In this document: positions 4,433 through 63,759 of the stretch, one piece after another
Layout of the letters: every line of letters starts with the position of its first letter
Position numbering within the stretch: position 1 is the stretch's first letter
Assembly: GCA_964016885.1 (NCBI GenBank)
Contig: OZ024740.1
Span: 288,796,001 to 288,860,000, forward strand
Direction of reading: 5' to 3'
DNA: 64,000 bases
From: Eledone cirrhosa
Taxonomy: Eukaryota
Program-made: the position numbers and the translations under genes
The notes under the pieces: model-generated
What the model saw: only the letters and a program-made list of their open reading frames with translations
Told to the model about the DNA's origin: nothing
Database searches by the model: none

Positions 4433-5523
4433 GTAATTTAGATGATCTCTAGTTTTTACCTACATCTCTTTCTTTCTCTTATGCAATTACTCTTTCTCAT
4501 TCACTCACTTCACATTCTCACCCTTTCGTCTTCTCTTAGTATCTGCTGAAATGTGTCTTTGGCCTTATCATCAGCTTAACATAATCAAAGGCTCTGGTAT
4601 AAAAGTTAAACAAATCTAAGCAAAAGCGCTGAAACTAACCATTCTCCTTTTCAAAGCTGTCTCAGAAATACACCTCACAGTTGAGAAAAAAAGCCTTCTT
4701 CCTTTTTACAAAACCTGGAGTTGTTGTTGTTGGTCAATCTTTGAGTGATGATTTCTCTGATTGTACTTTGGTGCTAATTTATTGAATTTCAATCATCATA
4801 TTCTAATTTTTGACAGGTTTGATTTCTATGTAGAAATTGGCTGTTTATTGTACCTTTACCATTTTTCTTTTACTACTACTTTTCTTTTAATTCAAAATGG
4901 CACTCATAGACAATTCAAAGATTTCATTTGCTTGACGCTTTGTCAGGTAAGCAATATTGATGACAACAATGATGATCCAGAAAATTCTTCAATTAATATA
5001 TGCTTAAAGTATGTTTCAACAACTCTATCTGTGTTGGTTGATATTACCATCCTTCATGGCCATATAACTATTTGCTCATTGACCATAGAACCCCATCTTT
5101 TCAGTGACCATATAACTTTCTATATAACATTATTTTGAGGTAGACATATTACCATCTCTTCTCACTGACCATATATTCAGTGGACTGCTCAACTATCTTA
5201 CCTCTTCTTCAGTGGTCATGTACTTTATTCTTTTGTGATCATGTAACTATCTATTCAATGACCATGCAATTGTCTAATCAGTAGTCATATAATGATTCCC
5301 TCAATGGTCATATAATTATCTTATCAATAAACACAACCACTTCTTCATCGGCTATGTAATTTCTTCTCTTGTGCTCATGTAACCATCTATTTAACAGCTA
5401 CACAACTATATCTTTTGGTGGTAAGCATTTTGTGTGACACCTTTATATCTCTCCTCACATACAGTTGCTTTCTAGCAGATATATATATGTATATATGTAT
5501 ATATGTGTGTGTGTGTGTGTATA

Positions 5524-13698: not shown

Positions 13699-13925
13699 TT
13701 CCTTTATTATATGGTATTTTATTTTTATATTTAGCTGAATTATGCTCGCTTGGCAGTGTTACAGCTGTTCTTTGCTCTAGCAGTCTTGCATTTGAGTAGG
13801 ATGTTTGCAGCTATAAATATACATATATATGCATATTCCAGGTTTCTTTTGTTTCTTTCCGTCTTCTGTTTTCATTTGTGTTGCAGGCAGCAGTTCGCAT
13901 TTGTCACTTTTGTTGTTATTTTCAG

Positions 13926-14087
13926 CCCGTCTTGCTGTGGCGGGGAAAACGCCCACCATAACTATCACCGAGGACAGCAGCAGCCCACATCATGACGATG
14001 ATGATGAAAGCGATGATTATCTCCGCTTTATTGAAAAGCATCAACAAAAAATGCAACAGCAACAAGCTGCTGCTGCTGCTGGCAAAG
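13926..14087 (+). CDS. 162-nt phase-1 cassette exon (ARLAVAGKTPTITITEDSSSPHHDDDDESDDYLRFIEKHQQKMQQQQAAAAAGK)
   Basis: Pyrimidine tract + TTTCAG|C acceptor, AAAG|GTTAGA donor, 54 codons, frame-compatible. A second in-frame acceptor TTGCAG|G at 13887. Confidence 0.7.
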
Positions 14088-16694: not shown

Positions 16695-17571
16695 CCAATT
16701 AATTTTTGCAACAATCATACTTGGTTAATCTTCTGTAAAGGCCATTATGACAACAATAAGCTATACTCTGTAGAGGCCAGTATGTCAACAATAACGGGTC
16801 CTTTATAGAAACCTGTATATTAACTGTAACAGGCCTGTTTCCCTGTAAAAGTTAGTATCTATTGCATTAAGTTAGCAGTGTGTAGGTTTTCCTCTTTTTC
16901 TCTCACTCCTTCTCTCCAACTCATCAATCTGATTTTTTATTTTCTCTCCAGAACTTCAAGACACAACAAACTTTATAAATTACAAAAGAAAAAAAAAAGA
17001 AAAAAGAAACATTCTCAGTTCTAAATAAAAATGCTGTGAAACTCTTTCTCTGATTATTAAAATCTTCTAATTTTGTGAAAGATATAATTTTACTAAAATA
17101 TATGGGGCAAGAAGGGTGATCAATATTCCTGATCAGCTTTGAGACTTATAAAGTCAAAACTGAGATGACGTTTTTAAATAAAATTAACTGCTTTTTTTTT
17201 AAGTTTCGTCTCTCAAATTTTTCAAAATACACTCATAAAAGATTGTTAAATCTAAATAACTGATCGTTTCCTTTTTGTACTTTTTAGCAACTGATCTCTT
17301 GTTTTTGTTTGTTATCTAAACAGTCTCTGGTCATTCAGTGGGTCTTTTTTTTATTTTTTTTTTAGCAATTTTACTGCACACCGGTTCTTTATTTTTCTGT
17401 CTGTTTTCATCACTTTCACATGTGTGTCTATCACTTTACCTCTTTGTTTCTTTACCCCCTATGTTTTTGATCCTCCCTCGTTACTATTGTTTGTTTTTGT
17501 TCTGGTTTACTCTTTATCTGCTTGTTCTGGTGTAAATTAATATATTGACTAATCCCTTCTTTTACTAGCAG

Positions 17572-17622
17572 GTCAAGAGCCAATTACCACAGTGTCCTCT
17601 GAACACCATGAGGAAGAATCAG
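17572..17622 (+). CDS. 51-nt phase-1 microexon (GQEPITTVSSEHHEEES) with NAGNAG acceptor
   Basis: Branch-like TGACTAAT, pyrimidine tract, TAGCAG tandem acceptor (17569/17572), TCAG|GTAACG donor; 17 codons, no stop. Confidence 0.7.
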
Positions 17623-17842
17623 GTAACGTTGAAACCTCTTGATGCTATGCTATGCTGTCTGTTGCATCTAGTCATCTATCTATATGTTTCACATAAACAG
17701 TTTTTATTTTATCCCCACATATTATTATTATTATTATTATTTTTGTCTTTTTTGCCTCATTGTTGTTCGCTACAATTGATCAATCCTTTTTGTATTATGA
17801 CTATTTGTATTATGCACCCATCCACACACACACATGGAAATA

Positions 17843-18565: not shown

Positions 18566-20159
18566 TATATATACACACACACATACACACAAGGTGCAGC
18601 AGAAAAACCTCCCATACACGATCAATCGTTAAAATGTGGGAGGTATTTTTTCCTCACCCTGCATATACACATACATGCACAGGCGCACTATTTTTATATT
18701 GTTCATAGTACCTTCTAGAAGAATAGAAAGAAATTATCATCAGCATGTCAATAGATGATGATTTAAGAATAGTTTCTGGGGAGAGGAGGAGGGTCCCAGC
18801 CTAAACTCACCACCTCCTAACATCCCAAAAGTGCATGAAAGCATTGATGTGTAATTACCCCCCCCCCCCTCACATCCCCCTTCCTGTTCCTCTGAAGTGA
18901 ACCCAATTCAATACTTTTTTTTTAATAATTTTATTTTAACATTTAAGCATTCCCACATTTGTATTGGGCCCTTTTTCTTTATTGTGTATGTTCATTTTCT
19001 TTATTTAGTGTTGTACCATTATAGTTTTTTCCCTTTTTCACCACTGAATATCATAGTTGATCAATTTATCCCTTACCCTCACTGATGTATCTTACTTAAT
19101 CCATGATTTCTGCACTGTGTATGTTGTCTTTTTTTTTGTTTGTTTATTTCTTTAATCATATATTGTTTTTTTTTTATTATTTTTTATATGCATTAATATT
19201 TTTGTTATTGTTTTTTTTTTATATTTATTTTTATTTCTTCCAATTAAAGCTGTTTTATTCCCTGTCTGCATTGTCAAGCTTGTTTACTATATATATATAT
19301 ATATCACTTGATAATCTTATGATAAGGTGATATATCATCTTGGGTGTTTATTAAATGTTCTAGAGTATCCTGGAATGATATACCAATCAGTAAAAGAGTG
19401 ATTTCCATTTGTCCCATTAACCAGAATAGCTGAAATGAGGCCTGAACATCTGGCCCTTTTTTAATTTTTACAACTTTAAATTATCAACTTCAAGAAAATT
19501 CCTTCCAATTAACATTTATCTCTCCAAAATTCCTGCTTTGTCAGAGAAGCAGATGATCTAAACTCAAAGTATTTAACTTTAAGTTGACCCTAAGTTTTTG
19601 GCTATGTCATTTGTGAAATTCCTAATTTTTTGATTTCACTCAAAAGGGTTGTGGTATATCCAGGCTTCTCATTACAATAATTATAATTAATAATTAATAA
19701 TTCTGTTCAGAACATTTCATTATTAATCAGGTTAAAATGAGCTTCAATTAATTAACTATTTTTTTTTCTTTATTCCATCTTAACTCTCTATTAATTATAA
19801 CTCTGAATTTAAATTTAAATTTATATACATATGCTCTCACACACTGTTACACAAATGAACACACACACACACATATACAGAAATACATGTAAATGTATAA
19901 AATATGTATCAATGTGTGTCTGTATGTGTATCTTTTTAATGTTCACATTTTAGATACAATAATAACTAATATATGTACTGTTCAAACCAAAACACTGTAA
20001 ACATTTTCCTTCTAATAACAATTTCCATTTTACTCATCTTGAAATCTCTCCTTTTTAATGCTTGCATTTCGGATTGCTGTCGGATTTTTTTTTTTTTTTG
20101 TCTCCTTTTAAATATTAAACAAATTTAAAAAAAAAACTTGACAAAATAACCCTTGTTAG

Positions 20160-23100
20160 ATGATGAGAGCGAGGGTAAAAGAAGATCAGTTGCTTCTATT
20201 ATTCAAATGTTTGAGCAAACATCTGACACTGCCTTGCAAAGTTCGGCTACAGACATTGTTCGTGAAGTCCAGAAATCAGCACAGGCAACATTACGTAAAG
20301 AATCCAAGGAATTCACAAAACAAGACTCTTCTGAATGGGTTGTCATTGACAACAGCGATCTTGATGGCTTTGATGCTGAAAAAGTACCATCAGCCAATGG
20401 CACTTATGAAAAAACAGAAGATTCTGCTTCAAAGGTAGAAGAATGGGTAAAAGTCTCTGCTGTCAAAGAAAAATTTGAGGACAAAATTAAAAATGGCTCC
20501 GTGTCTGAAAAGACTGTTGTTCGTGAAGTCACCAAAGTTGAAACTACTGTAGAAAAGCAAAAAGCTCCAGAAAAAGATGATGTAGAACAACCTTATGGTG
20601 TCCCAGAACTGCCCGACACCCACTTCAAGACTCCTTCTGATGATGAAAATCTTGATTTTTCTGAAAAATTGAAATTATTTACTGGCAAACATGCCCAAAG
20701 TTATTATGTCACAACTCAAGCCGATGAATTATTAAGCTCCGATGAAGAAACGCCGGACACCACCTCTAAAGGAAGTGAAAGGTCATACCAAACCGCATCT
20801 GAAACGAGTGAAATCCGATCCGAAACCGTTAAAGTGTCTTCTGCAGTAGAACAAAAAAGTGAAGTCGTTGAAGAACGACGTGAAAGCACTTCATCGTTGA
20901 TTGCCAAGTTTGAAGAAGTTACAAATCGTGAAAAATCTCTGAAGAAAGAAGCCATGTCATTTGACAAGGATAATAGAGAGACAGTACAGAAAGAAATGAC
21001 AAAATCTTGGAAAACTGATTCTTCTCAAAGTACAGTTCAGGAAAAGAATGAAAGTTACATATTCCAAGAGAAAAAAGAAAGTGTTTCTTCACACAGCTTT
21101 CAACCTGAGCAAAAGACAACATCAGAAGCGAAAGAAAAACAAAGTGAAACTCCTGATTTGAAGGAAGTTTTCAAAGAGAATAAAGGAATTGTGTCATCGG
21201 TTGAGAAGAGCTTCAAAACTGAAACAACTGAAATGAAGCAGAAAGTAGAATATTCTATAAATGATGGCAAAGTAAAAGAAGTCTTCACTGCTGAAGATAG
21301 CCAAATTTTATCATCTGAGACTTTGGACAAAACTATATCATCATTTGATAAAGATATTTCACCAGCACCTAAGGATAAATCACCTTCACCAGAAACTCAG
21401 CTGAAGACACCCTCCCCAGAACTTAAGGAAAAAGCTCCTTCACCAGAGCCACAACTTAAGTCTCCTTCACCAGAACCAAAAGATAAGTCTCCTTCACCAG
21501 AACCTAAAGATAAGACCCCCTCACCACTACAACTGAAGTCAAAGTCCCCCTCACCAGAACCTAAAGATAAGACCCCCTCACCACTACAACTGAAGTCAAA
21601 GTCCCCCTCACCAGAACCTAAAGATAAGACCCCCTCACCACTACAACTGAAGTCAAAGTCCCCCTCACCAGAACCTAAAGATAAGACCCCCTCACCACGC
21701 CAACTGAAGTCCAAGTCCCCCTCACCAGAACCTAAAGATAAGACCCCCTCACCACTCCAACTGAAGTCCAAGTCCCCCTCACCAGAACCTAAAGATAAGA
21801 CTCCCTCACCACTCCAACTGAAGTCCAAGACCCCCTTACCAGAACCTAAAGATAAGACACCCTCACCACTCCAACTGAAGTCCAAGTCCCCCTCACCAGA
21901 ACCTAAAGATAAGACCCTCTCACCACTCCAACTGAAATCCAAGTCCCCCTCACCAGAACTTAAGGAAAAAGCTCCTTCACCAGAGCCACAACTTAAGTCT
22001 CCTTCACCAGAACTTGAAGATAAGATACCCTCACCACTACAACTGAAGTCAAAGTCCCCCTCACCAGAACCTAAAGATAAGACCCTCTCACCACTCCAAC
22101 TGAAATCCAAGTCCCCCTCACCAGAACTTAAGGAAAAAGCTCCTTCACCAGAACCACAACTTAAGTCCCCTTCACCAGAACCAAAATATAAGTCAACTTC
22201 ACCAGAACCTAAAGATAAGAGCCCCTCACCACTACAACTGAAGTCAAAGTCCCCCTCACCAGAACCTAAAGATAAGACCCTCTCACCACTCCAACTGAAG
22301 TCCAAGTCCCCCTCACCAGAACTTAAGGAAAAAGCTCCTTCACCAGAGCCACAACTTAAGTCCCCTTCACCAGAACCAAAATATAAGTCAACTTCACCAG
22401 AACCTAAAGATAAGAGCCCCTCACCACTACAACTGAAGTCAAAGTCCCCCTCACCAGAACCTAAAGATAAGACCCTCTCACCACTCCAACTGAAGTCCAA
22501 GTCCCCCTCACCAGAACTTAAGGAAAAAGCTCCTTCACCAGAGCCACAACTTAAGTCCCCTTCACCAGAACCAAAATATAAGTCAACTTCACCAGAACCT
22601 AAAGATAAGACGCCCTCACCACTACAACTGAAGTCAAAGTCCCCTTCACCAGAACCTAAAGATAAGGCCCTCTCACCACTCCAATTGAAGTCCAAGTCCC
22701 CCTCACCAGAACTTAAGGAAAAAGCTCCTTCACCAGAGCCACAACTTAAGTCTCCTTCACCAGAACCAAAATATAAGTCAACTTCACCAGAACCTAAAGA
22801 TAAGACCCCCTCACCACTACAACTGAAGTCAAAGTCCCCCTCACCAGAACCTAAAGATAAGACCCCCTCACCACCCCAACTAAAGTCAAAGTCCCCCTCA
22901 CCAGAACCTAAAGATAAGACCCCCTCACCACTCCAACTGAAGTCCAAGTCCCCCTCACCAGAACCTAAAGATAAGACCCCCTCACCACTCCAACTGAAGT
23001 CAAAGTCCTCCTCACCAGAACCTAAAGATAAGACCCCCTCACCACTCCAACTGAAGTCCAAGTCCCCCTCACCAGAACCTAAAGATAAGACCCCTTCACC

Positions 23101-26100
23101 ACTCCAACTGAAGTCCAAGTCCCCCTCACCAGAACCTAAAGATAAGACCCCGTCACCACTCCAACTGAAGTCAAAGTCCTCCTCACCAGAACCTAAAGAT
23201 AAGACACCCTCACCACTCCAACTGAAGTCCAAGTCCCCCTCACCAGAACCTAAAGATAAGACCCCTTCACCACTCCAACTGAAGTCCAAGTCCCCCTCAC
23301 CAGAACCTAAAGAGAAAACTCCTTCACCAAAACCTAAAGATAAGTCACCTTCACCACCTCATCTTAAGTCAAAGTCTCCCTCACCAGAACCTAAAGATAA
23401 GTTGCCCTCACCACTCCATCTGAAGTCCAAGTCCCCCTCACCTGAACCTAAAGATAAGACCCCTTCACCACTACACCTCAAGTCAAAGTCCCCCTCACCA
23501 AAGTCTAAAGACAAGTCTCCTTCCCCACCACATATGAAGTCAAAATCTCCCTCACCTCTCCACCTGAAGTCAAAGTCTCCCTCACCAGAACCTAAAGAGA
23601 AAACTCCCTCACCCAAAACAAAAGACAAGTCTCCCTCACCACCTCATCTGAAGTCAAAGACTCCCTCACTGTCTCCCTTGAAATCCAAGTCTCCTTCACC
23701 AGAACCTAAAGATAAGTCTCCCTCCCCAGCTCGCATGAAGTCAAAGTCTCCCTCACCATCTCCCTTGAAATCCAAGTCTCCCTCACCAGAATCTAAAGAG
23801 AAAACTCCTTCACCAAAACCTAAAGATAAGTCACCCTCCCCACCTCATCTTAAGTCCAAGTCCCCCTCACCAGAACCTAAAGATAAATCACCCGCACCAC
23901 TCCACCTGAAGTCAAAGTCCCCTTCACCAGAACCTAAAGATAAGACTCCCTCACCAAGGCTGCAATTGAAGTCGCCTTCACCAAAAGCTAAGGATAAGTC
24001 TCCTTCACCACCTCACCTGAAATCCAAGTCTCCCTCACCAGAACCTAAAGAAAAGACTCCCTCACCAAAACCTAAAGACAAGTCACCATCACCAGAACCT
24101 CAGCTGAAAGCACCCTCACCAGAGCCTCAAGCCTCTGAAATTTGTCCTAAGCCTTATGATGAAGAGGATTTTGAAATTATTGAAAAGGAGGAAATTTTGG
24201 AAGCCAAGATTTCCTTAGAGCGCCAAACACCGTTCGACCCAGCTGCTATTGATCTTTCATCAACTGAAAAGGTTTGTCCTCCAAAACAACAAGGAGCAGA
24301 GCCACCAGATGATGGCCTTCAAACACAACTAAAAGAAGAACCTCACAGAGATACTGATTATGAAATCTCAAGGAGAGAAGTTTTTTTAGAAAAGGAATCT
24401 CGCAGTTTCTATTCATCGAAACCTGAGCCATCAATCTTAAGTGATTCTGTTAAAAAGGATCTACACACAGTTGTTTCCTCAACTACTATCAAGGAAGTGT
24501 CATCCACCATTACTGAACACACAACCAAGTTAGTTGAAGATAAAGATAAGGAAAGAACAACCCTATCTAGTGATAAATATTTTCTTCCAAAAAACGAGGA
24601 GAGATCTCCTGTGTGTGATGACATACAGGAGAGTAAAGTAGAGAGTGTGTCAGCAGACAGTGTTAAAGTTTCACCTGTGGAACAAAAAATTACCAGAAAA
24701 TCATCCTCTGGTGAACTGTTTGAGATCTCTCGGCAAGAAGAAAAAATGATCATAGACTCTCCTGAAAAACTAGAAATTCATGACTGGCAAACCTCAGCCC
24801 CAGAAGTCACTGAACGGTTTGATAGACAGGCTGAATCCATGTCAGATGAGAGTTTGGTTGAAGTTCAACTTGATGCTTTAAAAGAAGATATCAGAGAAAA
24901 AGTCCTTGAAGAAAACCAAGAAAGATCTATCAAACAATTGCAACAATTGCAAGATGTTTCAGATGAGGAATCAGATGAAATATTTACACATACTGATCAA
25001 AGAATGAAAGAGGAATTCACTGAGAAGCCACATGAAGATTCTGAGAAAAGGTTATCCTCAGCAGAATCCTCTGGTTTGTCACCAACAAAAGATCTTAAAA
25101 AAGATGTGGGTGACCGAACTGAGATAACTTATGAATTCCCTGTACAAGAAGACATGTCTTCAGATGAAGGGTCAAAGGGTAGTTCTCTAGAAATATTCCT
25201 TTCGCATGAAAAGATCTGTCAGGAAGAAGAAGAGTATATATCACACAAAGACCAAACATCTGTTACTCGTGAACAGCGAGTTTCCACAGTAACATCGGAA
25301 TATAAAACATCAAGTACATCTGAAATTAGAGAAGAAAGTACCAGCACAGAAGTGAAACCTGCATATCCAAGTAAAATTTCCCAAGAATATCGTGTGGAAG
25401 ATGAGCAGGATATGACATCAGATGAAGAAACATCTGAAGAAATCCCTGAATCTGAGACCTCAAAGAAAACAGCATCTCAGTTTAGTTCCATTCTATCAGA
25501 GGAAGCTACGTATTTTGAAATCAACAGACAAGAGCAGTACATGAAAGTTGAGTCACCTGAAAAAATTGAATTTAAAACACCGGCCAAAAGCGATGGTCTT
25601 AGTTTTAGTGCCGATCCTTTTTTAGTATCTAGTGCCTTGGCACATGAAACATCGGTGGAGAGTATTAGAAGCATTCCCAAAGTGGAATCTCCCCTTACTG
25701 AAGAATCTCCAAAACATGTAGCCAAGGATGACACTTCTGACCGAACTGACGAGAAATATTCTGTTGACCTCTCTACTTTACAAAAGCAGTCAGAGGCTAA
25801 ATTTAAAGATACTTCAATTCACAATTTCCAGGAAGAGAAATATATGTCCAGTGATGAAGAAAGTGATGTTGATGATACTGATCATGTTGACATAATGGCA
25901 GAAATGGAGTATATGTCTAAATCACAGAGCACAGATGTCACAGATGAAATGGAGAAGAGATCTGAAGATATCACTGATAGTGGATTTAAAAGTGGAGCTG
26001 ATGATGATTTACTAAAGAGGAGTACTGATAAAGATCAAATGGATTTTACAAAACCATTTCCTTTTCAAACGTTTGAGGAACAACTTCTTAAAGAACAGGT

Positions 26101-28274
26101 TTCTAACAAAGAAATAAGAAATGAGAGTTTTAAACAAGAGACTCGAGTCAAAGAAACCACAGTTCATGAAGGATCTATTGAGGAACATAAAATTCTTGAT
26201 GACCAAACTCCCAGCAAATTCACATCAGAGTCAAAGATTACTGAAGATGTCAAAGTAAAGAGATCAGAAACAGCAACAACAGAAGAGAGCACAACTCGAT
26301 CAACCACTGTTGGTGATGAGACTCAATCAATTACAGATGAAATTCGTTCTGTGAAACAAAAAGATGTTGAATCTGAAAGTAAAAGAGAACAGGCAACTGT
26401 AGAAGATGAGTTTCAAAAGGAAACCACTGAAGAACTAACAACTAAAGATGCACTCAAAATGCATAGTGAACTGACTGAAGGAACGTCTCATACATTTGAA
26501 GAAGATGGTACCAAGAAGGAAATAAGCCAAGAAAAATCATCTGTGTGTGATAAATCATTTGAAGAAGAGATTGAGAAACAACAGTATGAAAAACAATCAA
26601 AAGATGGAGAAATTCAGAAAATTGAAGATTTAGAACAGAAACTGATTGAAAAAGATTCTAAAATGGAAATTATTACTGATACAACCAGCAAAGAAGATGA
26701 GTTCCAGAAAGAAATTAAAAAAGAAGTAGCTGTAAAAGACGAATCCAAGTTGTCTATGACCATCACTGATGATTTGATGGAGGTTGATAAAACAGACAAA
26801 AAATACAAATCCAAAACATCTGAAATCGAGGAAAATGTAAAACATGAAGACACTTTTCACAAAGAAGTGGTTGAATTAAAAGAACCTGAAACAGCTAGAG
26901 TTCTTGAGGTAATTGAAGGAGAAGATTCTGGGGGTGAGAGTGACCATTCCTTCATTGAACATAGTGATGAAGAGAATGAACAAATGGAGGCTTTAACAAG
27001 GAGCGGTCATTTAATTGGTTCAAGGATGGACGATCTTGTTGAAGAAGAAATTGATGAGACTGAAATCGAGGACCAGTTTATTGACAGGCGAGAATATTTT
27101 GAACATCATCAAAGGGACACTATTGATTTCAGAATTGTTCAGAGAAATTCCAGACCTGATTTTAACACCACTGAAGGATTTCCACCATTACACACAGACA
27201 AAGATGTCACTACAGTTCTGAAAGGTACATCAAAAGATAGTGATATCCCTGCAAAGAGCCAAGAACATACTGAACCCCAAGAAGATCAGATTCCTTTTTT
27301 AGGGAAACAGGAAACAGTTCGGGAAATAACCGACACTAAAGCTACCACATTGACCAATGAGAAATCAACTATTGGGCAGAGTACTGGGCTGTTTCCAACT
27401 GACTCTCTAAAAGAAACCGAAAAAGTGTCACACAAGGGGGCTGCTGACAAAGTGAATTTTGCTGAAGATTTCACTTCATACAACTCCCACATCACTGATG
27501 ACTACACGAATTACTCTTCTGATTTCTCCTCTTATCACCGTGATGGAAGTGGTTTGGGTACTCGTAACATCCTTGTCCCATCTTCTTCCACTGAAGCACA
27601 GGAGCGTTCAGCCACTCCTAGTGCAAGCGATGATGACAGTTCTGGTGAGTACTATTCGAGTGAGTGCATAAAAAAACTGAAGATAACTGACCAAATGACT
27701 GAGAGTATAGAGTACCCATTGAAAGACAAGACAGACAAAGACTCAAATGGTAGACCACTGTCTCCCACTGAATACACACTCATGACAGAATCTCAACTGG
27801 AACTTCATGAGGCATTTCAGACAGTGGTTGATGATCAAGACATAATGACTCAGTCAATGATTGAGTCACATGAGTCACTAGTCCAATCAATGATCGATCC
27901 AATGACTCAATCCCAAATCGGAGAAGAGTTCAGACGCTCTCTTGATTCACAGTCTGACATTGATGGTAGAATGGTTATTGACCAAAGCATTGAATCAAGC
28001 AGAGAAGCCAAACAAGAAGACTTTGTAGAGTCTGACCTGAAAAAAGATGAAGAGAGACCCCCATCACCATCAGAATTCACCCTGTTGACATCCCTTGAGC
28101 AAGATGAACTTGCCAAAGCTCTGGGGTTACAGGATAATGGTTTAACAGCAGTCGAAATTGAAGATGAGTATGAACCGGTAGATAAAGACCGAGATGACAC
28201 TAGTCAACAGCTTGCTCAACAGCCATCTGCTCCCACACAAGATGATCAGTTCACCACTGATGCTGATCTAAAAG
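20160..28274 (+). CDS. Giant coding exon B (8115 nt, 2705 codons); KSPSP-repeat and acidic disordered region, probable giant ankyrin tail
   Basis: Within the 2743-aa ORF; acceptor TGTTAG|AT at 20160, donor AAAG|GTATAT after 28274, both phase 1. Extended LIR-like motif at 24158-24208. Confidence 0.85.
21358..24130 (+). repeat. Coding KSPSP/KTPSP array (27/30-nt subunits, 57-nt unit, 195-nt higher-order unit)
   Basis: 57-nt period at 21551/21608; marker CCAAAATATA at 22181, 22376, 22571, 22766 (195-nt period). Confidence 0.95.
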
Positions 28275-28455
28275 GTATATTTCACTTTGATTCTATTTGT
28301 TATGTAGACACCGTGTTGTGGTATTCTTTATTGATAACACACACTTACTCTCTGATACTCTCCAATCAGAAATGTTATTTATAAAGAAACAATTATTATT
28401 ATTATTTGATTTTCTTACTATAAATTAAGAAATTAGTCTTCATTATGACTTTTCG

Positions 28456-28810
28456 GGCAGTGAATTAGTAGAATCATTAGAACACCAAGCAAAATACCTT
28501 GTTGTATTTATTCCAGCTCATTACATTCTGAGTTCAAATCCTGTTGAGGGCAACTTTGCCTTGCATCTTTTTGGGTTCAATAAAGTAACAGGCCTGTAGT
28601 GGGAGTCAATTCTACTTTAGAGCAATAGATTGGCAGAATCATTAGAGCATTACATTTAGTTACAGCTCTTTACATTCTGGCGTCAACTTCGTCTTTCATC
28701 CCTCTGGTGTGGTCAAATAAAATAAAAAAACCACCAGTGAAGTGCCGGGGTTGATTTAATCAACAAGCCCCTTCCTCTTAATTTCTGGCATTGTGCCTAT
28801 GTTAGAAACA
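28456..28810 (+). mobile_element. Two degenerate family 1 SINE copies
   Basis: TAGAATCATTAGA..CTGAGTTCAAATCC..AACTTTGCCTT and a second similar body; boundaries approximate. Confidence 0.6.
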
Positions 28811-29105
28811 ATTGTTAACATCATTAATATTATTGAGTCCTACAGAATATAGACCAGAAATAAATTTTCAGTAACTTAGTTTCAATACATTGATGAAACA
28901 TTTCATTTATATTCCTTTACTAGTTTCAGCCAATGGACTGTGACCGTGCTAGGGCATTGCCATTATGTCACTGTTGAGTTAACTCTTTTGATACCAAACT
29001 ACACGAAACCACTCCTGGATAGTGGGCTATTTATATTTATCTAAACATCTTCCATCATAATTTTATGTAAGAACATTTGTGAAGTTTCAAACACCAACGT
29101 AATAA

Positions 29106-29450
29106 TTGTTTCCACCTTTGGCACAAGGCCAGCAGTCACCCAGTGAATCACTGGTACTTTATTTTATCGACCCCATAAGGATGAAAGGCAAAGTTAACCT
29201 CGGCGGGATTTGAACTCAGAATGGCAAGGGCCATAACTCTATGCGTCAAATCATGGTGTCCGACCCTCTACCAATACTGCCAATCCACCGCCCTATCCAA
29301 CATAATAATGAGAAAGTTAATAATTGTTTCTACTTTAGGCACAAGGCCAGCAAATAACCAGTACATTACTGGTACTTTATTTTATCGACCCTGTAAGGAT
29401 GAAAGGCAAAGTTAATCTCGGCGGGATTTGAACTCAGACGTAACTATGCT
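29106..29450 (-). mobile_element. Two tandem family 1 SINEs (one full, one 5'-truncated)
   Basis: 29106-29293 and 29324-29450 closely match 12782-12965. Confidence 0.85.
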
Positions 29451-29587
29451 AGAAAAAGTTAATAATGTTACTAAATCTGTTCAAATTCTTGATTGTTTGA
29501 AAATCATAGGTTGTCTTTCATTAGAAATGTGGTAATGGGAGGATTAAAAGAAACCACTTCTATTTGTATTATTAGTAAATATTGTAG

Positions 29588-29806
29588 GATGGTGGATTGG
29601 CAGTATTGGTAGAGCATCAGACAATATGATTTTTGGCATAGAGTTACAACCCTTTACACTCGAAGTTCAAATCCCACCAAAGTTAGCTTTGCCTTTCATC
29701 CTTACAGGCTCAATGAAATAAAGTACCACTCATGCACTGAGGTCGATTTAATCGACTTTCCCCTCCCCTAAAATTGCTGGCTTTCTACCTAGATCAAACC
29801 ATTATC
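29588..29806 (+). mobile_element. Family 1 SINE with 12-bp target-site duplication
   Basis: A/B boxes, conserved body, TAAATATTGTAG at 29576-29587 and 29809-29820. Confidence 0.8.
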
Positions 29807-33577: not shown

Positions 33578-34423
33578 GTATTGACAAACAGGAAATCATA
33601 TTTGAGCAGATGGTTGAACAAATTGTTTGTGAGGGAAACAAAATATCAGTGCCTGATTCCACAATACAAGATGAAGATTCTGTTTCCACTGAACCTGCGT
33701 TGATGTCATCATCTCAGTCTAGAGACAACAATACTTATTCTAGTATCAGCAGTTCTGATTTTGGTGAACAAGTAGCAGCCGTACAGTCACAACAAGTCTG
33801 TAGAGAAGACAGCGGCTCTGATGATCGAGCTCTAACTGAAGAAGACTTTGAACGCATGATGTCCAGTTATGAAAATGTTTATGATGGAGTGCAACTCGCT
33901 CCTGAGGTCAGCAAGTTAGCCATGACTGCCAGTGATATAGATATTGGAGATCGTTTTGACACAAAACAACTTGACCTGCATCTTCAGCCAACTGGACGCT
34001 CTTCAAGTTATGAGCAGCTTTACAAAGAAACAGGTGAAATGGCAGCTGAATTAAATGAACAAGCCGAGCAAGTTATTTATTCTGCAGAGTCAAAAGAAGG
34101 TGAGTTGAACAACGTGAGTGCAGCGACTGACTCACTTGTGTCTCAAGCTTGCTCGAAACCACAGAGTGAGCCAAAATGTTTACCTGCAAAGAGGTCAGTC
34201 CGGTTTGACACTGATCCCAGTCCAATTCACATAACAGTACAGTCTGGACTAGACACTTTAGGCTGTGATGATAGCATAACAACGGAGTCAACTGACCCAG
34301 AATTTATGATGCGAGCCTATTCTTGGGACCCAGACTGGGACCAGTCTAAGTGTCGTAATAGAACATATTCTGCTCCTGGGAAAAAGTCTCGTCGGGGTTT
34401 GCCACAAATTTACCAAGAGAAAG
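33578..34423 (+). CDS. 846-nt phase-1 exon (282 codons), acidic/Ser-rich
   Basis: T/G-rich tract + TGCAG|GT acceptor, AAAG|GTATCG donor, inside ORF 33478-34515; composition like the giant exons. Confidence 0.8.
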
Positions 34424-43745: not shown

Positions 43746-43889
43746 ATATGCCTCCTACTGACCAGCATGATGTCCAGCGAGAATTAATAACGGCTGCAAA
43801 GGATGAGGAGGAGGAGAAGGAAGAGGAGGAGAACCTCAGCTCCTCCAGTTCCGAAGTAGCCCAAGTTGAAGATGTAGATTTTCTGCCAG
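43746..43889 (+). CDS. 144-nt phase-1 exon (DMPPTDQHDVQRELITAAKDEEEEKEEEENLSSSSSEVAQVEDVDFLP)
   Basis: TTTCTCTTCTTGTCTCAG acceptor, CCAG|GTAGCT donor (weak), 48 codons, in frame. Confidence 0.65.
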
Positions 43890-48302: not shown

Positions 48303-51300
48303 ATGCCGAGATGCGTGACACCAGTGAAGAAAAAACAGAAGAAACGGATGTGGAAGAGCAGTTCTCTCCCCTTCCTAAAAGTTCTCCTGCTTCTAAAGGT
48401 GCTCTTGATCTTAGGTTAGAAGACAAGTTCTTTTCGTTCACGCAATCCCCCGTGGAGTCCCCGACCGCTGAAATAACAAATGAGATATCTCCTGCTCAGG
48501 ATCTCCTCGATGTCAAAGATATGCAAATAGCTGTCGGCCTCTCACCATCGGAGATTAATGCCAAGTCCAAGCTGGGATCTCTTCCAGAATTCTATGAAAC
48601 AAAAACAACTGAAGACTTCAAAGCTATGAGTAAAATTATCTCCTCAAAATCTCACAAAATAGAATATGAGAAAGATACTGGTGAATCATTCAACATTCCT
48701 AGGATTTCGACCGATTCTGATACAACTGAAGAAAGATTAGAGCTTGATAATGTAGCAGAACAATCAGCTACATCATTAATGTCTGAAGAACATGATGGAA
48801 CTGAAGATGACTACAAAAGAGAAACACCCGAAGAAAGAGCTGAACGTTTATCTTCCATGGCCTTTGATAACATGGGTTTTGCTGGTGAAGATGTTGTCGA
48901 CAGTGAAATTAAGACACACTCTGATGACTTCTCTGAAGAAAGTCCAATTCTTGCTGCCAAAGAAATATCTCCAGAAGACCTCGAAGAGAAGCCTCATCAA
49001 TTTGACTTCCCAGCTGTTCATCAAGAAATATGGCAGATGGGTATCCAAGCACTGGGGAAAACCACATTATCAGAAGAGAGTGAGATGTTTTCTAGCTCAA
49101 TGAAATTTGAAGAAGTAACACACAAGGTTTCATTTGAAAAAGATGATGATGATGAGAGTGGTGCAGCAATCTATTCTGAGAGTGAAGAAACCTCTCGTTC
49201 AGAAAGTGGAGATACTAAAGATCAGAACTCTTTCCAAGAATCTATCCAAACATCTAAAGCATCTGATGGCCAATTTGAAGCTACCTCACAAATAAGAACA
49301 GAAAAAACTGTTGTAACATCATCCCGAGCACAAGTCTCTTTATCAGAGAGTCAAAGTAAAATGGTAACTGAAACTAAAGTCTATCAAGCGAAAGAAACCA
49401 GCAAAGGAATTGAACTGGCTGGAGATGATATTACTGAGAAGGCTCCTAAACATCTTACAAGCATAGTTAGTGAGCCTATTATTTCTCATCCATTTGATCA
49501 TTCTACAGTGGAAAGTATTTCTCCAGAAGCCAGTAGTTCTGAAAGTGAAGGTTTCTATGACAAAGAATCTGGCAAGAAGTTACCTTGGGAAACTGTCCAC
49601 CATTTCTCCCGGCAGTTCTCTGATAATTATCTTGAGCAACAGGAAAAACAAGGAATCATTACTGTGCAGTCAGTTGACATGGGAGTATTTTATCGGAGAA
49701 GTAGTAAAGACTATACAAATGTAACGTTTAGTGAACAAGATATCTCCGAATCTATTGCTGAAGAAGATGAAGAACCCCCAAAACGGGTTACCTTTACCCT
49801 CTCAGAAGATTTAGAAGAGTTTCCATCAGAAATAGTTACCGGTTCAGATGAGTCAAAGCATGATGATGAAACTGACCAAGAAATCAGAAAATCAGATGAT
49901 GTTATAGAAGTATCTGTCAAAGATCAAATTGTTTTCGACAAGACAAGAAAAGGTGAGCCTGTTGCAACATCCAAAACAGAAGAATCTGTTGTCATCACAA
50001 CATCCAAGACAGCAGAACCTGTCACCACTACATCCAAGACTGAAGACAGTGTTGTTACAACATCCAGAAGAGAAGAACCTGTTATTACTACATCAAAGAC
50101 AGAAAGATCTGTCTTCTCAACATCCAAGACAGAAGAACATGTTACAACATCCTCCAAAACTGAGGAACCTGTCATCACTACCTTGAAGACAGAACATGTC
50201 ACTACCACATACAAAACTGGAGAACCTGTCATTACAACATCTAAGACAGAAGAATCTTTCATCACAACATCTAAAACTGAAGAACCTGTCATCACAACAT
50301 CTAGGACAGAACACGTTACTACAACATCCAGAACAGAGGAGCCTGTCACCACAACATCAAAGACAGAAGAATATGTCACAACATCCAGAACAGAGGAGCC
50401 TGTCACAACATCAAAGACAGAAGAATATGTCACAACATCCAGGACAGAGGAACCTGTCGTCACAACATCCAGGACAGAGGAACCTGTCGTCACAACATCC
50501 AGAACAGAGGAGCCTGTCGTCACAACATCAAAGACAGAAGAATATGTCACAACATCCAGGACAGAGGAACCTGTCGTCACAACATCAAAAACAGAAGAAT
50601 CTTTCATCAAAACATCTAAAACTGAAGAACCTGTCGTCACAACATCCAGAACAGAGGAGCCTGTCGTCACAACATCAAAGACAGAAGAATATGTCACAAC
50701 ATCCAGAACAGAGGAGCCTGTCACCACAACATCAAAGACAGAAGAATATATCACAACATCCAGGACAGAGGAACCTGTCATCACAACATCAAAGATAGAA
50801 GACCATGTCACAACATCCAGGACTGAAGAACTTTTCACTAGGACATCAAAAACAGAGGAACCTGTCACCACAACATCGACAGAAGAATCTTTCATCACAA
50901 CATCTAAAACTGAAGAACCTGTCATCACAACATCTAGGACAGAACACGTTACTACAACATCCAGAACAGAGGAGCCTGTCACCACAACATCAAAGACAGA
51001 AGAATATGTCACAACATCCAGAACAGAGGAGCCTGTCACAACATCAAAGACAGAAGAATATGTCACAACATCCAGGACAGAGGAACCTGTCGTCACAACA
51101 TCCAGAACAGAGGAGCCTGTCGTCACAACATCAAAAACAGAAGAATCTTTCATCAAAACATCTAAAACTGAAGAACCTGTCGTCACAACATCAAAGACAG
51201 AAGAATATGTCACAACATCCAGAACAGAGGAGCCTGTTACCACAACATCAAAGACAGAAGAATATGTCACAACATCCAGAACAGAGGAGCCTGTCGTCAC

Positions 51301-54300
51301 AACATCAAAGACAGAAGAATATGTCACAACATCCAGAACAGAGGAGCCTGTTTCCACAACATCAAAGACAGAAGAATATGTCACAACATCCAGGACAGAG
51401 GAACCTGTCGTCACAACATCAAAGACAGAAGACCATGTCACAACATCCAGGACTGAAGAACTTATCACTAGGACATCAAAAACAGAGGAACCTGTCATCA
51501 CGACCTCCAAGACAGAAGAATATGTTACTACAGAATCTGATAGTGAAGAACCTGTCATCACAACATCAAAGACAGAACATATTATTACAACATCCAAACT
51601 TGGAGAACCTGTCATCAAAACCACAAAAACAGAACATGTTACTACAACATCCAAAACTGGTGAACCTGCCATAATAACATCCAAGACAGAAGAATATGTT
51701 AGTACAACATCGGAGCCTGAAGAAGCTGTCATCACAACTTCTAAAACTGGTGAACCTGTCATTACAACATGCAAGACAGAAGAACGTGTGATCACAACAT
51801 CCAAAACAGAAGAACCTGTCATTAAAACAACTAGGACAGAACGTATCTCTGTAGAACCAAAAGAAAAATATGACACAACAGCCTCCAAGACAGGGCATGT
51901 TACTAAAACATCTACATCAGCACATGTCACTGTGACCTCCACTGTGGAACGTGTCATCACAACTTCCTCGAAAAAAGATGATGATATTAAAGAAGTTGAA
52001 GAACATATCACTATAACATCTAAGGATAAATATGTCTCTGAGGAAGGGCCTATGGTGGGAGCCAAGGAAGGTATTATTGAACCATATGACAGGATGTCTG
52101 GGGAATATGAAGCTACTGTTTTGGCTAATATTATGGATGACCAATCTTTTAAACAAGAAAAAGTGTCTGAATCACCTGAAGAAATATCTAGAGAGGGCAC
52201 TTTAAAAGAGAAAGATCTTGAATATGGAATGGTCTCCAAGAGCACTGCTGACTTAGCTAGTCCTTGTGAAAGTAAGTCTTCTGACCTTTCATTAGATCTT
52301 TCATCAGAAAAACTCCCGTCAAAAGATGGTCTTGATGAAAAACAACTTGAGCCAAAGCCAACCAGTGAAGAAATATCACCAAAATCAGGAATAATCGGTG
52401 TTGTAAGCATTGAATCTCGAATGGCTCAAAAGGAATTATTACAGGAGTCAGCAGATAAGGATCGCTCACTTTCACCATCAGTTGACAGTGATGAGTTATC
52501 AACAACTTATGAAAGTCAAGGAGAACTGCAAGAACTCTGGGGTGAAATCCCTCCTGTTGATCGCTATCCTGCCCCAGCTAGAAGGAAACATTATGCTGAT
52601 AGTGAATCTTCGGAAGCAGAGAAAGAATCTCCTGAAACTGAACTTTCTCCTATTGCTGAAACACCAGCCTCTAAAGCTGAGACTGAGGAGCAAGAAGAGA
52701 GTAAGCTGACAGCTCAAGACAGAAGGGTAACATTTTTGTCTGAGGAGAGTAAGGAGAAGCTGAGACAATCTATTTCTAATGAAGATTTAGTCAAAACATC
52801 AACCTCTTCTTCTGAAGTATCCAACGAACCAACTTTATTAGCTGCTTCGTATGATTTGGATTCAGGGCATGTTTCACACATTGTGACAGCTTATGATATG
52901 TCTCCAGACACCATTGAGAGTCAGGCACCGCATCCACCGGCGCCTAAAGCTATTCTTTCGAGTCCTGAAGATGACGTGTTTGAAGTTGAACCAACTGTGG
53001 GAACTGCTCGTATCGACGAACCCTGCACTGAGCCAGATTCTGAAAAGAGTTATACCGGGCCTCAGTCTGAGGTCATCATTATAGAAGACATTTGTGTCAC
53101 AAAAGACAAAACGGGGTCGGAGTCGACGGAATCTTTACCGCCAACTCCTGCTCCAACGCCGAAAGATGCAACCACCATCAAAGATACCGTTTGTAATCTT
53201 CAAGATGCAGCCAACAAACTGCAAACCGAGGGTCTCTTTGATCGGCAGTTTGGATCTGTAAGCAGTGAAACTTCTGAAAAACGTCCTTCAAGTTTTGAAA
53301 AGGACTTTTCAAAAGATGAAAGCAGTGATGATGATGATGATCATGGCCAATCATTTGAAATGGTTTCACCAACTGAAATTATTGGCTATGATCAATATGC
53401 TGCTAAATATTTACAAGGTGGTATAGCGGGATGCATTGAAGCAGCAAGTTTGACCGCTTCAGTGGAATCCCTCTCTACATCCGGAAGTAGTTTTGCTGAC
53501 CTCAGAGCTAGTGAGCCCACAAGTATGAAATCTAGTTTAGAAGAGTCTGCCAGTGCTACAGCTTTTGTTGAGCCATCAGCACCTCCAATGGAAGAAATAT
53601 TTCAACTTCCCAGTTCTCAGACTACAAAACCTGATACCGATTCCTCACCAGATCAATCACTTTTTAGCAGTAGCGATGCTTCAGAGAAAGGTGCAGCCAT
53701 TATGGATATTGTTGCCTCAAGTGTTGCATCTCCAGGTGCATGCCGTCCTGATTTGTTACCCTCTGACTCTTTTCAGCAGAGTTTATCTACAGAGGAGATC
53801 AGTGAAACAGAAAATATTGAAGACATCGCTGCCGATAGATTCTCCCAATTACCAAATGGTCCTACAGAGGTAGATTTCCAACCAGACATTGATTCTGTTT
53901 CATCTACTGTAAAAACTGTGGTGCCTACAGCACCACCAGATTTGGTTCAGTCATCACCATCATATGTTATGGAAAAGGAAAAATCAGAAAGCAGTCAGCT
54001 TGATGAGGCTGTCATGGATCTTGAAGACAATCAGATATCGGCTGGTTCTGATGCTGCTGTTAGAGATGTTATGACCGATAGCTTGATAGATGATGTGAAG
54101 TTGTCGGCTGAGCAACAGGAAGTTTTAGTAACGTCAGATCAGACTTTATATGAACTTGAAATGCCAATGGAGGAAGAAGCTTCCCCCATTGAACAAGTTG
54201 GTCCAGCATCAGCTGCAGTTTCCATAACTGAAACTACATCATCTGTGGTTGTTAAAACAGAAGCCCCTACACCACTGGAATTTCATGAAGAACATCATCA

Positions 54301-57300
54301 TGACATATATCCAGCAGAAATGATTGAGTCTGGATCTCCAACTGAAATTATTGGACTAGAAACAGTGTTAGATGACCTAGAAGAACAACCGTATGAGTTG
54401 AAGAAAGATGAAATTTATCCTGGCAAAAGAGCACTTGAGTTTGATGTGTCTAGCTATGAAACTTTGTTAGAAGAAAACGAAGAGAGACAGCATGAAGGAG
54501 AGTCTGGCGTGGTAGAGGTTAGCCATCTAATTAGAGAAGATCAGAGGATTAATCTGGATGATACTGATGAAGAAACAGTTCAGTTTTCGGATCAACTAAA
54601 ATCCGATCTTGATGTAAGCTTTGTTCATACTTCAGAAGAAGTATGTACAGACATGGTAGAAGAAGACTTTAGTGATTTAAGCAAAGATGCTTCTTATGAA
54701 CAAGTTGAACTGACTGAAAGCAGTCTAGAATTTGCTGAGAAAGCTGAAGAAGAACTTGAAGCGTTAGCAGGAAAAACCCCAGAAATATCATTTGAACCAT
54801 CTAAAGGAGAACAAGATTTGGACAGACCCATATCCCCAACACCCCAGGATTCTCAAGAAGGAATCCTTAGTGATGATTATGAGAAGGTTGACTCTATTCT
54901 AAGCACAGAAGAACTAGAAAAAACAGCTACAGTATTTGTAGACTCTGTTCTTGAAGAAGTTTCCAAAGTTAGGGAAACTACTCAGGTGTTCCCTGAACAA
55001 ATAGAAGAAACTGAAAAACCAATCAATGAAACAGATTTCGATGAGAGCAAAGAATCTGAAAAAATGCTTGCCTTCTCATTTACAGAACCATTTGATCCAT
55101 CAATGATGTGTCGGTCACAACCAGCCTTTTTCTCGGCTCCACCTCCACCTTCTCATCCCCCTCCTTTCACGAAACAGGGGTCAGATGATATGCCCGAGAT
55201 CACCATCACTGAACACATACATAAGGTTGCTGATGAAGATGACTATCCTACCAGCTTTGCTCGATCACATATGCCAGATTCTTCCTCTGACCAGGAGGAC
55301 AAGAATGATGAAAAAGAATCTGGAGATGATAGTCCAAAGGGTGTTGGAATGTCCTATTTTGAAATGATTCAGGATGAAATGGAATTTGAATCAGATGAGA
55401 CTGAAAAGAATGGAGTGTCATCACATGAAACCAGCTCATCAGCATTCATCATTGCTGAGGCTCATTCTGGTTCCGCAAAAACCTTCACCAGTGAACAAGA
55501 AATTGAATGGAATGTGCAGAAATTTTCTGAAACTCCTGACAAAGTACCAACCACTTCTTTTGAAGACTCCTTTTCTCTACAGACTAAAACTGAGCCAGTA
55601 CCTATTAGTTCTTCAAAACAATTCCAACGAGATTCTGAAACTAAAGATTCTTCCAAAACTGGTTTCCTTGGATTTGAGCCATCGATCACACATGTCACTG
55701 ACATTCTGAGTCCAGAAGATATTGCTGATACATCGAGTGTGGACAGCTTTACAACAGTCGTCGGTGTAGACCAAGAAGGGGATGAATGTGATGATGACCG
55801 ATTGGCTGATGTGGCGTCTATGACGTCATCAATCCACTCCGACATTTATTCCATGCACACTGAACCAGAAGAAGAAGAAGAACCATTTGACTGGCCCTTA
55901 TTGACAGAAGAGGACAAATCTGGGGAATCTTCTCCATGTAGCGATCGTTTTGAGATGATTGGGAAGACTGCTTTATCAGTGATATCTGAAAAGTCTGATG
56001 AAGATCGATTTGAAATGATAGAAAAAGATGAACTTGAAGCTCTCTCCGACAGCCACTCTGGCCATTCTGGCCACTCTAGCAAAACCTCACCAGAGATGAT
56101 ATCTGCCTCACCTGGTACTGTGGGTCATACCCATGGCTATCCAAACATACGATATGCTGGCAGAAGTCGAGACAAAGATGACGGATCTGCTGCTTCTTCT
56201 GTTTCTTCATCTTTGCTAGAATTTGAGAGGTTAGAAGGGGAAATGGGACAATTTGGTTCCCTAGGATCAAATGAAGCCCACAGCCTGCCTAGCTCTTTTG
56301 ACAGTCGAAACTTCCGTTGGCGAGCAGGTGATCGAGATGATGTGTCAGTTGCCTCATCATTAGGAGAATTTGAACGTCTAGAGCGACAGATTGCACTTGG
56401 AGGTTCAATTGGCTCGTTTGGTTCAATTGACAAGTTGATGCCATCGGGACAAGGTAGTGCCACCAATGGTTCAATGTCGTCATTGGCCGAGTTTGAAAAC
56501 CTTGAAAAAGAGTGCACTGGGGGTGGATACTCCAGTTCTGGAGATGATCGCCACAGTTCATCTAGTGGCCATAGCAAACGCAGTGCAAGTTCATCTCTTG
56601 CTGAATTTGAGCGACTAGAACAAGAAATAGTCATATCTGAAGAACTTGCTGCTGAAGCTAAAAAAATAGCGTCAATATTGGAATCAGGGGAGCTGCCTGA
56701 ATATCCAGAAAGTGAAAGTTTAGGAAGTTCATATCAATCAAATGGACATATGAGAGATTTACCTGAAATAATTGGTAATTTTGATATTGAACAGGACTCC
56801 ATAGATGGAGATGACATTGACAAAGATTCACTGAGCTCTGAAGAACCTAAGTTACAGGATGTTAGTCAAGTGGCTAAAGATGATGAAGACGATGTAGACT
56901 CATTGGATGGAGACAGCAAAGATGAACTAACTTCTAGTGTCATCTTTGTCTCAAATGCTGAAATACAAGATTCCAGTGAAATAGGTCAGTTTGAATTTGA
57001 TCGAGATTCTTTGCAAGGAGATGATACAGCTATGCAGTTTTCTGTGGAATCCTTGCAATTGGACCAAGATGCTTCATTTGACATGCACAGTTCTGTTGAT
57101 TCCTTAGAAATAAAAGACAAGTTCAGCCGAGATATGCAAAGCTCAGCTGACTCTCTGGAACTAAAAGAAAGAATGAGCAAAGAAATGGTAGATTCAACCG
57201 ATTCTTTGGAATTTAAGGACACTGTGAAAGATACTGACAAATTTGAAACAGATTCACTGGTTGACCAAGATGATATCATGCAAACGTCTTCTGATTCACT

Positions 57301-58220
57301 TGATGCATTTCCTGAATTAACACACCAAAACATCATGGAAGCTTCTTTAGAATCAGCTCGTTGGAGTCTAAGCAGCTCTTACTTTTCCCATTCCTCACAA
57401 GAAACCTTACGATCTGAATCCCACAGTGACTCAAGCCATTCTAGAGATGTCATGCAAATGTCTGCAGATTCTGTGGATTTTGAAAAAGACAAAAGATTTG
57501 AGGGTTCTGATACCGAAATGGAATATAAGTCAGTAACGAGTAAAACATTGACATCATCGACTTTAGATCCCGAAATCCGCATGATCACAGGAATATCTCA
57601 TCCCAACAATCCTTTCTTAGATAACGAAGGCAATGTTAGGACAGATCTGGGGTATCCGGGCCATTTTAGAAGCAAATATGAATATTCAAAGTTTGATAAA
57701 GAAGGGAACTACCGTTGGAACACAGAGCTAGAAGAAAGTACCAGAAACAACACTTATCTCAACTGGGGTCCTTATCAAGAGAAAAAGAAGGTTTACACCA
57801 TGACAGAATGGGAAGCCATGCGCAACGCTAAAAAGAGAAGTGCTGATAATGATGAAGAACTTGGCGGGGACAGTGAACAAGAGTCTGTGATTCCTGATAA
57901 TCACTTTGCCCAACTTAAAAACAAAGAAGTCTCTTCTAACCTTCCTTCTGAGCACACAACTTCCCACCCTAGAACTTCTTCACCTCCTCCTCCTCCTTCT
58001 ACCGTTCTACGGCCTTCTACAGTTTCCTCCTCTTCTACTACTACCACTACTACTTACTACTCCTCTTCCAATTCCTCTTCCTCTTCCTCAACCTATAATG
58101 CTGCTGTGACTCGGCCTGACTCCAGCTCCACCAGTCAAACTGCTGCTACCTCCGATCCTCTGCTATACCATCACAGTATGTCGGACACTACTACTACTAC
58201 TGTCCATAAAACCAGTAGAG
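48303..58220 (+). CDS. Giant coding exon C (9918 nt, 3306 codons); TTS[K/R]TEE repeats, SLxEFERLE and DSLE repeats; probable giant ankyrin (Ank2-L/UNC-44-like) long exon
   Basis: 3308-aa ORF; TACTAAC branch point 48269-48275, acceptor CTATAG|AT, donor AGAG|GTATAT, both phase 1. Confidence 0.85.
49955..51840 (+). repeat. Coding TTS[K/R]TEE(PV/YV) array (27/30-nt units) with internal block duplication
   Basis: Visible in DNA and protein; a block starting at 50248 recurs at 50881. Confidence 0.95.
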
Positions 58221-63410: not shown

Positions 63411-63467
63411 AACAGACAGATTTGCCACAACAGATGTCCACTGAAGAATCACAGAGCAAAACAGAAG
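63411..63467 (+). CDS. 57-nt phase-1 exon (EQTDLPQQMSTEESQSKTE)
   Basis: TTTTGTTTTTCAG acceptor, GAAG|GTGATT donor, 19 codons. Confidence 0.7.
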
Positions 63468-63759
63468 GTGATTTGAACATGTGAATTTATTTTTATCGAC
63501 ATGTTGTTTTTAATTTTGGTTTTGTTGCTGTTGTGATTTGATCAGTACTATACATATATATGCTCTAAGTTATCACATTCTACAAATATATATATACATA
63601 GGGAAAGTTAAATGAAATATACACTCAATTAACATACATACATACTTACACATGCCCACACATGTATAATATTCCAGCTTTACTCTTCTTACCATAAAGC
63701 TAAGGAATTTGATTAAAACAGTCTGTACAGAATGTGTGTAAATGTTAATGAAATGAGCA

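Follow-up and report, generated by a model that had tools for sequence, protein, structure and literature searches.

The window analyzed here, a 64,000-nucleotide stretch of Eledone cirrhosa DNA, covers the 3′ half of a giant ankyrin gene from an octopod. On balance, we lean toward reading the long tail encoded there as a multivalent docking region for Atg8/GABARAP proteins, in which the peptide flagged in a preliminary description (site B) would likely be one of about four sites that combine a LIR (Atg8/GABARAP-binding) core with a C-terminal helix. That description missed three further motifs in the tail (sites A, C, and D2), two of which, C and D2, are conserved across Mollusca. The copies with cores at 53354 and 56009 are more important than the flagged copy, which alone is modest.

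The gene was identified by homology. P0069, a protein of 7515 aa, contains an ankyrin core (ANK, residues 49-800; ZU5, 1184-1278; UPA, 1516-1646; death domain, 1688-1766), with the domains assigned via its match to a Pfam-annotated Mytilus protein and one ZU5 scored. After the death domain, P0069 is 82-93% identical to exon E2, exon E3, and most of E4 of the window (77-93% over the window exons E2-E4), and this continuation of an ankyrin core into the window exons is the basis for our assignment. A search with the conserved part of E4 returned 68 homologous proteins, the best of which was an Argonauta hians protein named "titin-like" (P0001; 91%). Mytilus and Saccostrea ankyrin-2-like proteins that carry ANK, ZU5, UPA, and death domains were among these 68 and matched both E3 and E4, and the Argonauta protein model connects E2, E3, and E4. 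Searching with the motif region among 50%-cluster representatives retrieved P0069 and P0070 alone, and further members may hide inside clusters. With E2 residues 1322-1900 as query, none of 7997 candidates matched, under a length window that shut out the full-length proteins. Pfam detected no ANK, ZU5, UPA, or Death domain in the four long open reading frames (ORFs) of the window, the single match being irrelevant and below cutoff. The names attached to P0024 and P0001 raised MAP1/futsch or titin as candidates; both identities were rejected because the full-length relatives carry an ankyrin core. The proposal that the host gene is an ankyrin is thus borne out by homology to P0069 and to the Argonauta, Mytilus, and Saccostrea ankyrins. 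The motif itself, which had been offered as support for that identity, does not identify ankyrins, because the class of LIR cores with a C-terminal helix comprises not only AnkB/G but also FYCO1, FAM134B, SEC62, STX17, RTN3, Ede1, and Atg40, the last with Met at +3 (PMC8727931, PMC7335187, PMC7615515).

The architecture of P0069, with its long exons downstream of the death domain, is that described for protostome giant ankyrins; vertebrate giant ankyrins have their long exon before the death domain (PMC5135030). Amino acid composition also agreed: the tail is 28% S+E and 62% S/E/T/D/K/P, and the published long exons of protostome giant ankyrins have about 25% and >55%, respectively (PMC5135030).

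Giant exon E2 (20160..28274, + strand; about 2700 codons, 8.1 kb), placed by its ORF, homology, and splicing, is rich in S/E/T/D/K/P and holds sites A and B within an open frame of 2744 codons (20150-28384, +). Its non-repeat part is 87% identical to P0069 and 74% identical to Argonauta P0001. The E2 donor is spliced in contigs of related octopods, and the acceptor was inferred from P0069. In three of four runs of related octopods, presumed to be RNA, E2 continues into E3 on one contig across a GT..AG junction (28274->33578). Exon E3 (33578..34099, +), placed by homology and splicing, contains one block conserved in bivalve ankyrin-2-like proteins. Tblastn of P0069 placed a small linking exon at 43746..43889 (+), the 68 homologues placed giant exon E4 (48303..58220, +; about 3300 codons, 9.9 kb) with sites C, D1, and D2, and comparison with P0069 placed another small exon of this gene farther downstream, at 63411..63469 (+); the edges of these three exons were inferred.

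Several other features of the locus were observed. A separate contig runs past the E3 donor in two runs (34097-34300, +), with the frame open to 34515; this may be a longer form of the exon or material that was left unspliced. E1, the third long ORF, lies at 1-4452 (+) of the window, with 13925-14041 and ~17562-17627, and contains a 31-copy array of a 16-aa unit at 2504-3995. The P0070 model joins an E1-like start and a small exon to E2 without an ankyrin core, and P0069 skips E1; P0070 may represent a giant isoform that is headless or alternative, or its model may be an artefact. Repeat reading of E2 revealed a 2.7-kb KSPSPEP/KDK(T/S)PSP tandem array (21358..24100, +) that ends just 5′ of site B and is replaced by an FSSVD array in the distant orthologue P0071, and a second tandem array, TTS[KR]TEE, lies at 49965-51841 (+). 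Both window arrays resemble the phosphorylatable spacers of neurofilament and MAP proteins. A [FY]EI[SN]R.E motif recurs in E2 as DYEISRRE, LFEISRQEEKMIIDSPEK, and YFEINRQEQYMKVESPEK at ~24352-24390, ~24718-24770, and ~25511-25570 (+), respectively, and the latter two copies are retained in P0071. The intron after E2 contains very high-copy short interspersed repeats (28400-29800; depth up to 80,000 in contigs of related octopods), and a 285-codon ORF on the opposite strand (7277-8134, −) looks by eye like a transposon remnant and had no Pfam match.

Site B (DEEDFEIIEKEEILEAK; 24158..24208, +; residues 1337-1353 of the E2 open frame) translates as previously reported. Numbering from the first core residue as 0, the published rule for LIR cores with a C-terminal helix is an acid at +7 plus a hydrophobe at +8 or +11 (PMC8727931). 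Residues 0 and +3 fill two Atg8 pockets, the acid at +7, often accompanied by one at +1, pairs with R67, and the hydrophobe at +8 or +11 packs against helix α3 (PMC8727931, PMC7335187, PMC7615515). In our alignment of animal GABARAP ORFs, the invariance of F62, L63, and R67 was built in by the search pattern. Site B conforms to this rule at F0, I+3, E+7, I+8, and A+11 (core FEII, 24170-24181; E+7, 24191-24193; A+11, 24203-24205), and E+7, I+8, and A+11 are retained in P0069 and Argonauta. The acidic N-flank (DEED-FEII) follows directly on the low-complexity KSPSPEP array, with no Pfam domain. Of the two vertebrate peptides given for comparison, that of AnkB was correct (ANK2 1578-1613, bioRxiv 10.64898/2026.01.05.697675; PDB 5YIR chain C), and its gap-free alignment to site B has 8 identities in 16 positions over −3..+12. 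For AnkG, the WIEF core, W1989, E1996, and A2000 were confirmed; the remaining residues stand as given in the preliminary description. Among 10-mers of the tail, residues +7 to +16 of site B fall in the top 1% by helix propensity. In an AlphaFold2 model of a free 60-mer around the site, the core and tail form a single helix (18-37). A bound LIR core is extended, and the free-peptide model neither demonstrates nor rules out the bound form.

Two of the other sites are much more broadly distributed. Site C (HGQSFEMVSPTEIIGYDQ; 53342..53395, +; core FEMV from 53354) follows the mollusc-wide consensus S-P-F-E-[IVML]-[MV]-S-P-S-[ED]-L-x-G-Y. After collapse of identical blocks and exclusion of 14 of the 68 proteins that had no anchor, 37 of 39 distinct blocks had an aromatic residue at 0, [ILVM] at +3, an acid at +7, and a hydrophobe at +8. 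This count falls to 11 of 39 when Met is disallowed at +3, which is usually Met. Site D2 (SDEDRFEMIEKDELEAL; 55994..56044, +; core FEMI from 56009) is SEC62-like, and 41 of 52 distinct blocks have all four features. Ahead of D2 lies a degenerate tandem copy, D1 (FEMIGKTAL at 55949, +), with all four features in 3 of 52 blocks; D1 lacks the +7 acid (8 of 52). The C and D2 blocks were anchored on independent flanking motifs, and their median column conservation is 0.31 and 0.42, respectively. Conservation of sites C and D2 extends to cephalopods, bivalves, and gastropods alike: both sites are present in Argonauta, Mya, Mytilus, and Nucella, Biomphalaria carries D2 only, and Saccostrea carries C and a partial D2. 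Over FEIIEKEEI, some mollusc D2 copies share 8 of 9 residues with site B, which is thus one instance of a motif type found repeatedly along the tail. Site A (DSSEWVVIDNSDLDGFDA; 20324..20377, +) has a Trp core (WVVI at 20336) with D+7 and L+8, shares with site C a likeness in the tail (D/E-L-x-G-F/Y), and is retained in all three octopod proteins compared.

Motif reading also revealed four S[LV]xEFE[RN]LE motifs in E4 (56210-56620, +). In every protein examined, the site D block was anchored on such a motif, and the region is a candidate counterpart of the UNC-119-binding C-terminal region of C. elegans. In two bivalve proteins, D-[FY]-[FLY]-D-L-I-[DG] occurs just after the death domain (Mytilus P0035, 1854-1980, twice; Saccostrea P0059, 1915) and is, from its sequence, a candidate for another LIR- or FFAT-like site.

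Chance expectation was assessed on 6232 exon-trimmed residues with 2000 shuffles. The exact pattern in the preliminary description, which was drawn post hoc, would arise by chance 2e-5 times and was absent from all 2000 shuffles. The literature rule (core, E+7, hydrophobe at +8, and A+11) occurs once in the tail, as 96 and 93 of 2000 shuffles also reach (about 0.05). Plain LIR cores are about as frequent as chance predicts (46 versus 42-43 expected), and many canonical LIRs are reported to be nonbinders (bioRxiv 10.64898/2026.01.05.697675). Cores followed by E+7 are enriched (13 versus 5.8-6.0 expected), with 13 reached in 11 and 16 of 2000 shuffles. Five motifs combine a core, an acid at +7, and a hydrophobe at +8, against about 1.6 expected (5 reached in 36 and 50 of 2000 shuffles), and in four of these five, namely A, B, C, and D2, the flanks are acidic or rich in Ser. 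In 50 distinct non-octopod tails, which are related rather than independent rows, the extended pattern was counted 124 times; local shuffles gave 53.9 +/- 6.9, and the highest count among 200 of them was 73. A profile of the four motifs searched against 177,635 PDB sequences put the AnkB LIR at the top (5YIR, E 0.018), followed by the SEC62 LIR-GABARAP fusion (7BRT, E 0.26), a result that is partly circular because the motifs were chosen by LIR pattern. A control profile of four plain-core motifs, one of whose four alignment rows was out of register, matched neither 5YIR nor 7BRT in PDB. Site B alone and D1 plus D2 alone gave no PDB match at E<=10.

Within octopods, site B is retained. It reads DEEDFEIIEQEEILEAK in P0069 and DEEEFEIIGKEEILEAK in Argonauta, with substitutions limited to −1, +4, and +5 and positions 0, +1, +3, +7, +8, and +11 unchanged. 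Over its 51 nt, the differences listed for four related octopod runs, which are not independent, include one synonymous change, and the exon differs by about 8-10%. Between 39 and 46% of E2 17-mers are conserved as well as, or better than, site B. Coverage of E2 outside octopods consists of one partial protein, P0071, which is 43% identical over E2 residues 1401-2710 and from this identity appears to come from a more distant cephalopod. The motif is absent in P0071 between the repeat array and the alignable region, the 5′ part of the protein lying outside coverage. An E-[IL]-x-E-A tail after a core was found in 1 of 50 distinct non-octopod tails, mostly representing E4 or short isoforms, and there it is located at site C. 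These two observations together suggest that site B is limited to octopods, as far as seen. The preliminary description had called the site ancient or convergent. Great age is not supported, given that site B is no better kept than its flanks and is missing in P0071, and convergence is the best reading. The expected conservation across molluscs likewise divides: site B is conserved in octopods and not in P0071, and C and D2 are conserved mollusc-wide.

How the docking reading would work at site B can be drawn by analogy with the AnkB, SEC62, and FAM134B complexes. F0 and I+3 would enter two hydrophobic pockets, E+1 and E+7 would form pairs with R67 of GABARAP, and I+8 or A+11 of the helix E+7-I-L-E-A-K would pack on helix α3; the K/Q at +5 would favor partners from the GABARAP subfamily. 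The very tight, AnkB/AnkG-like binding first proposed for site B is not what its residues point to. Its Phe core, E+1, and K+5 are closer to SEC62, which binds GABARAPs at 0.19-0.57 uM and LC3s more weakly, and by this comparison the affinity of site B would probably be submicromolar rather than nanomolar. Sites C and D2 may hold the old function, with site B an octopod addition whose AnkB-like EEILEAK tail would have arisen by convergence. The Ser-Pro flank of C and the Ser-Glu-Glu-Asp flank of D2 suggest tuning by phosphorylation. In the cell, such a tail might tether lipidated-Atg8 membranes or GABARAP-bound receptors to the neuronal ankyrin-spectrin cortex, as AnkG does for GABA-A receptors. 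More tentatively, Atg8/GABARAP docking could be what the long exon of giant ankyrins already did in the bilaterian ancestor, a role preserved while short motifs turn over in an exon that is otherwise unalignable. In molluscs, this would take the form of a multivalent array of extended LIRs, tunable by phosphorylation, on which autophagosomes or GABARAP-bound receptors would be scaffolded along axons, with C and D2 predating the bivalve-gastropod-cephalopod split and A and B seen in octopods only. We hold this wider proposal as a possibility that is probably not correct as it stands.

Three other readings were weighed against multivalent docking. Site B could be an acidic helix that arose incidentally because the tail is rich in Glu, with only C and D2 functional or with B binding only in vitro. 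In favor of this reading, site B is no better conserved than its flanks and is missing at the matching place in P0071, and roughly 5% of shuffles of this protein reach the literature rule. However, mollusc D2 copies match B at eight of nine residues, the octopod changes spare all six key positions (0, +1, +3, +7, +8, and +11), and a synonymous change is the one listed in 51 nt of an exon over which the runs differ by about 8-10%; we consider an incidental site B unlikely.

It is more doubtful still that the FE[IM][IV]xx[ED][ED]L motifs are merely LIR-like and are conserved for binding something else, whether a trafficking adaptor, UNC-119/CRMP, or the ankyrin-repeat groove of the protein itself. 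There is a precedent in the C terminus of C. elegans giant UNC-44, which binds UNC-119 (PMC7159925), and the conservation of C and D reaches past the LIR positions (S-P, G-Y, SVI-TELS), with D1 conserved without the +7 acid. Yet the best-kept columns are those of the Atg8 rule (acidic or Ser flank, aromatic 0, E+1, hydrophobe +3, acid +7, and hydrophobe +8), and D2 equals the SEC62 LIR at 8 of 11 residues, some of them at positions outside the search pattern. We give very little credence to direct orthology of site B with the vertebrate AnkB/AnkG LIR through the long exon of a bilaterian ancestor. The identities to AnkB include EEI-EA, and giant ankyrins have been argued to share one origin (PMC5135030). 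Against this, the long exon follows the death domain here and precedes it in vertebrates, long-exon homology across phyla is described in the same paper as undetectable, with composition alone shared (PMC5135030), and B was not found outside octopods, though the bivalve isoforms compared may omit the E2-equivalent exon.

The multivalent docking reading matters because of what the link does in mammals, where the giant-ankyrin-GABARAP connection stabilizes inhibitory synapses and is abolished by the bipolar-associated ANK3 variant W1989R. Mollusc giant ankyrins, extended LIRs in vertebrate giant ankyrins, and a two-hybrid interaction between Drosophila Ank2 and Atg8a, as cited in a review (PMC7615515), are already known. 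Conserved Atg8-type sites in mollusc tails, if true, would give the long exon a shared molecular function across phyla, and the mollusc sites would extend the natural series of helix-assisted LIRs. Their exact sequences also provide peptides for asking whether ankyrin was linked to Atg8 before vertebrates arose. Better targets than the flagged copy are those conserved at 53354 and 56009.

Among known systems, the closest by host are AnkB (ANK2 1588-1613; PDB 5YIR/5YIS) and AnkG (the W1989 site), which belong to the same protein family and, like the octopod site, lie in a giant exon of the type that is neuronal in vertebrates. Site B resembles them in its acidic N-flank, core, E+7, I+8, A+11, and predicted helical tail. 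In contrast, site B has a Phe rather than a Trp core, E rather than V at +1, and K/Q rather than D at +5; its long exon is downstream of the death domain, whereas theirs is upstream; and the octopod tail holds several predicted sites, with homology to AnkB/AnkG around the motif undetectable. By sequence pattern, the nearest relative is the SEC62 LIR (7BRT), to which site B is identical at 7 of 11 and D2 at 8 of 11 positions, with F-E-[IM]-I-x-K-[ED]-E-[LI] in common; the D at +4 in the 7BRT construct is an engineered T367D. Atg40, with its Met at +3, provides a precedent for most site C copies. SEC62, FAM134B, Atg40, and Ede1, which form the class defined by +7 and +8, are receptors for ER-phagy or condensates and are unrelated to ankyrins. 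In a full-text literature search that covered few subscription papers, no LIR was found to have been mapped in an ankyrin from molluscs or other protostomes; Drosophila Ank2 is reported in a review to bind Atg8a in a two-hybrid screen (PMC7615515). In architecture, the octopod gene is most like Drosophila Ank2-L/XL, C. elegans UNC-44, and the Aplysia and Lottia ankyrins, which share long exons after the death domain and repeat arrays, and it differs from these other protostome giant ankyrins in having at least two giant exons together with a third long ORF, E1.
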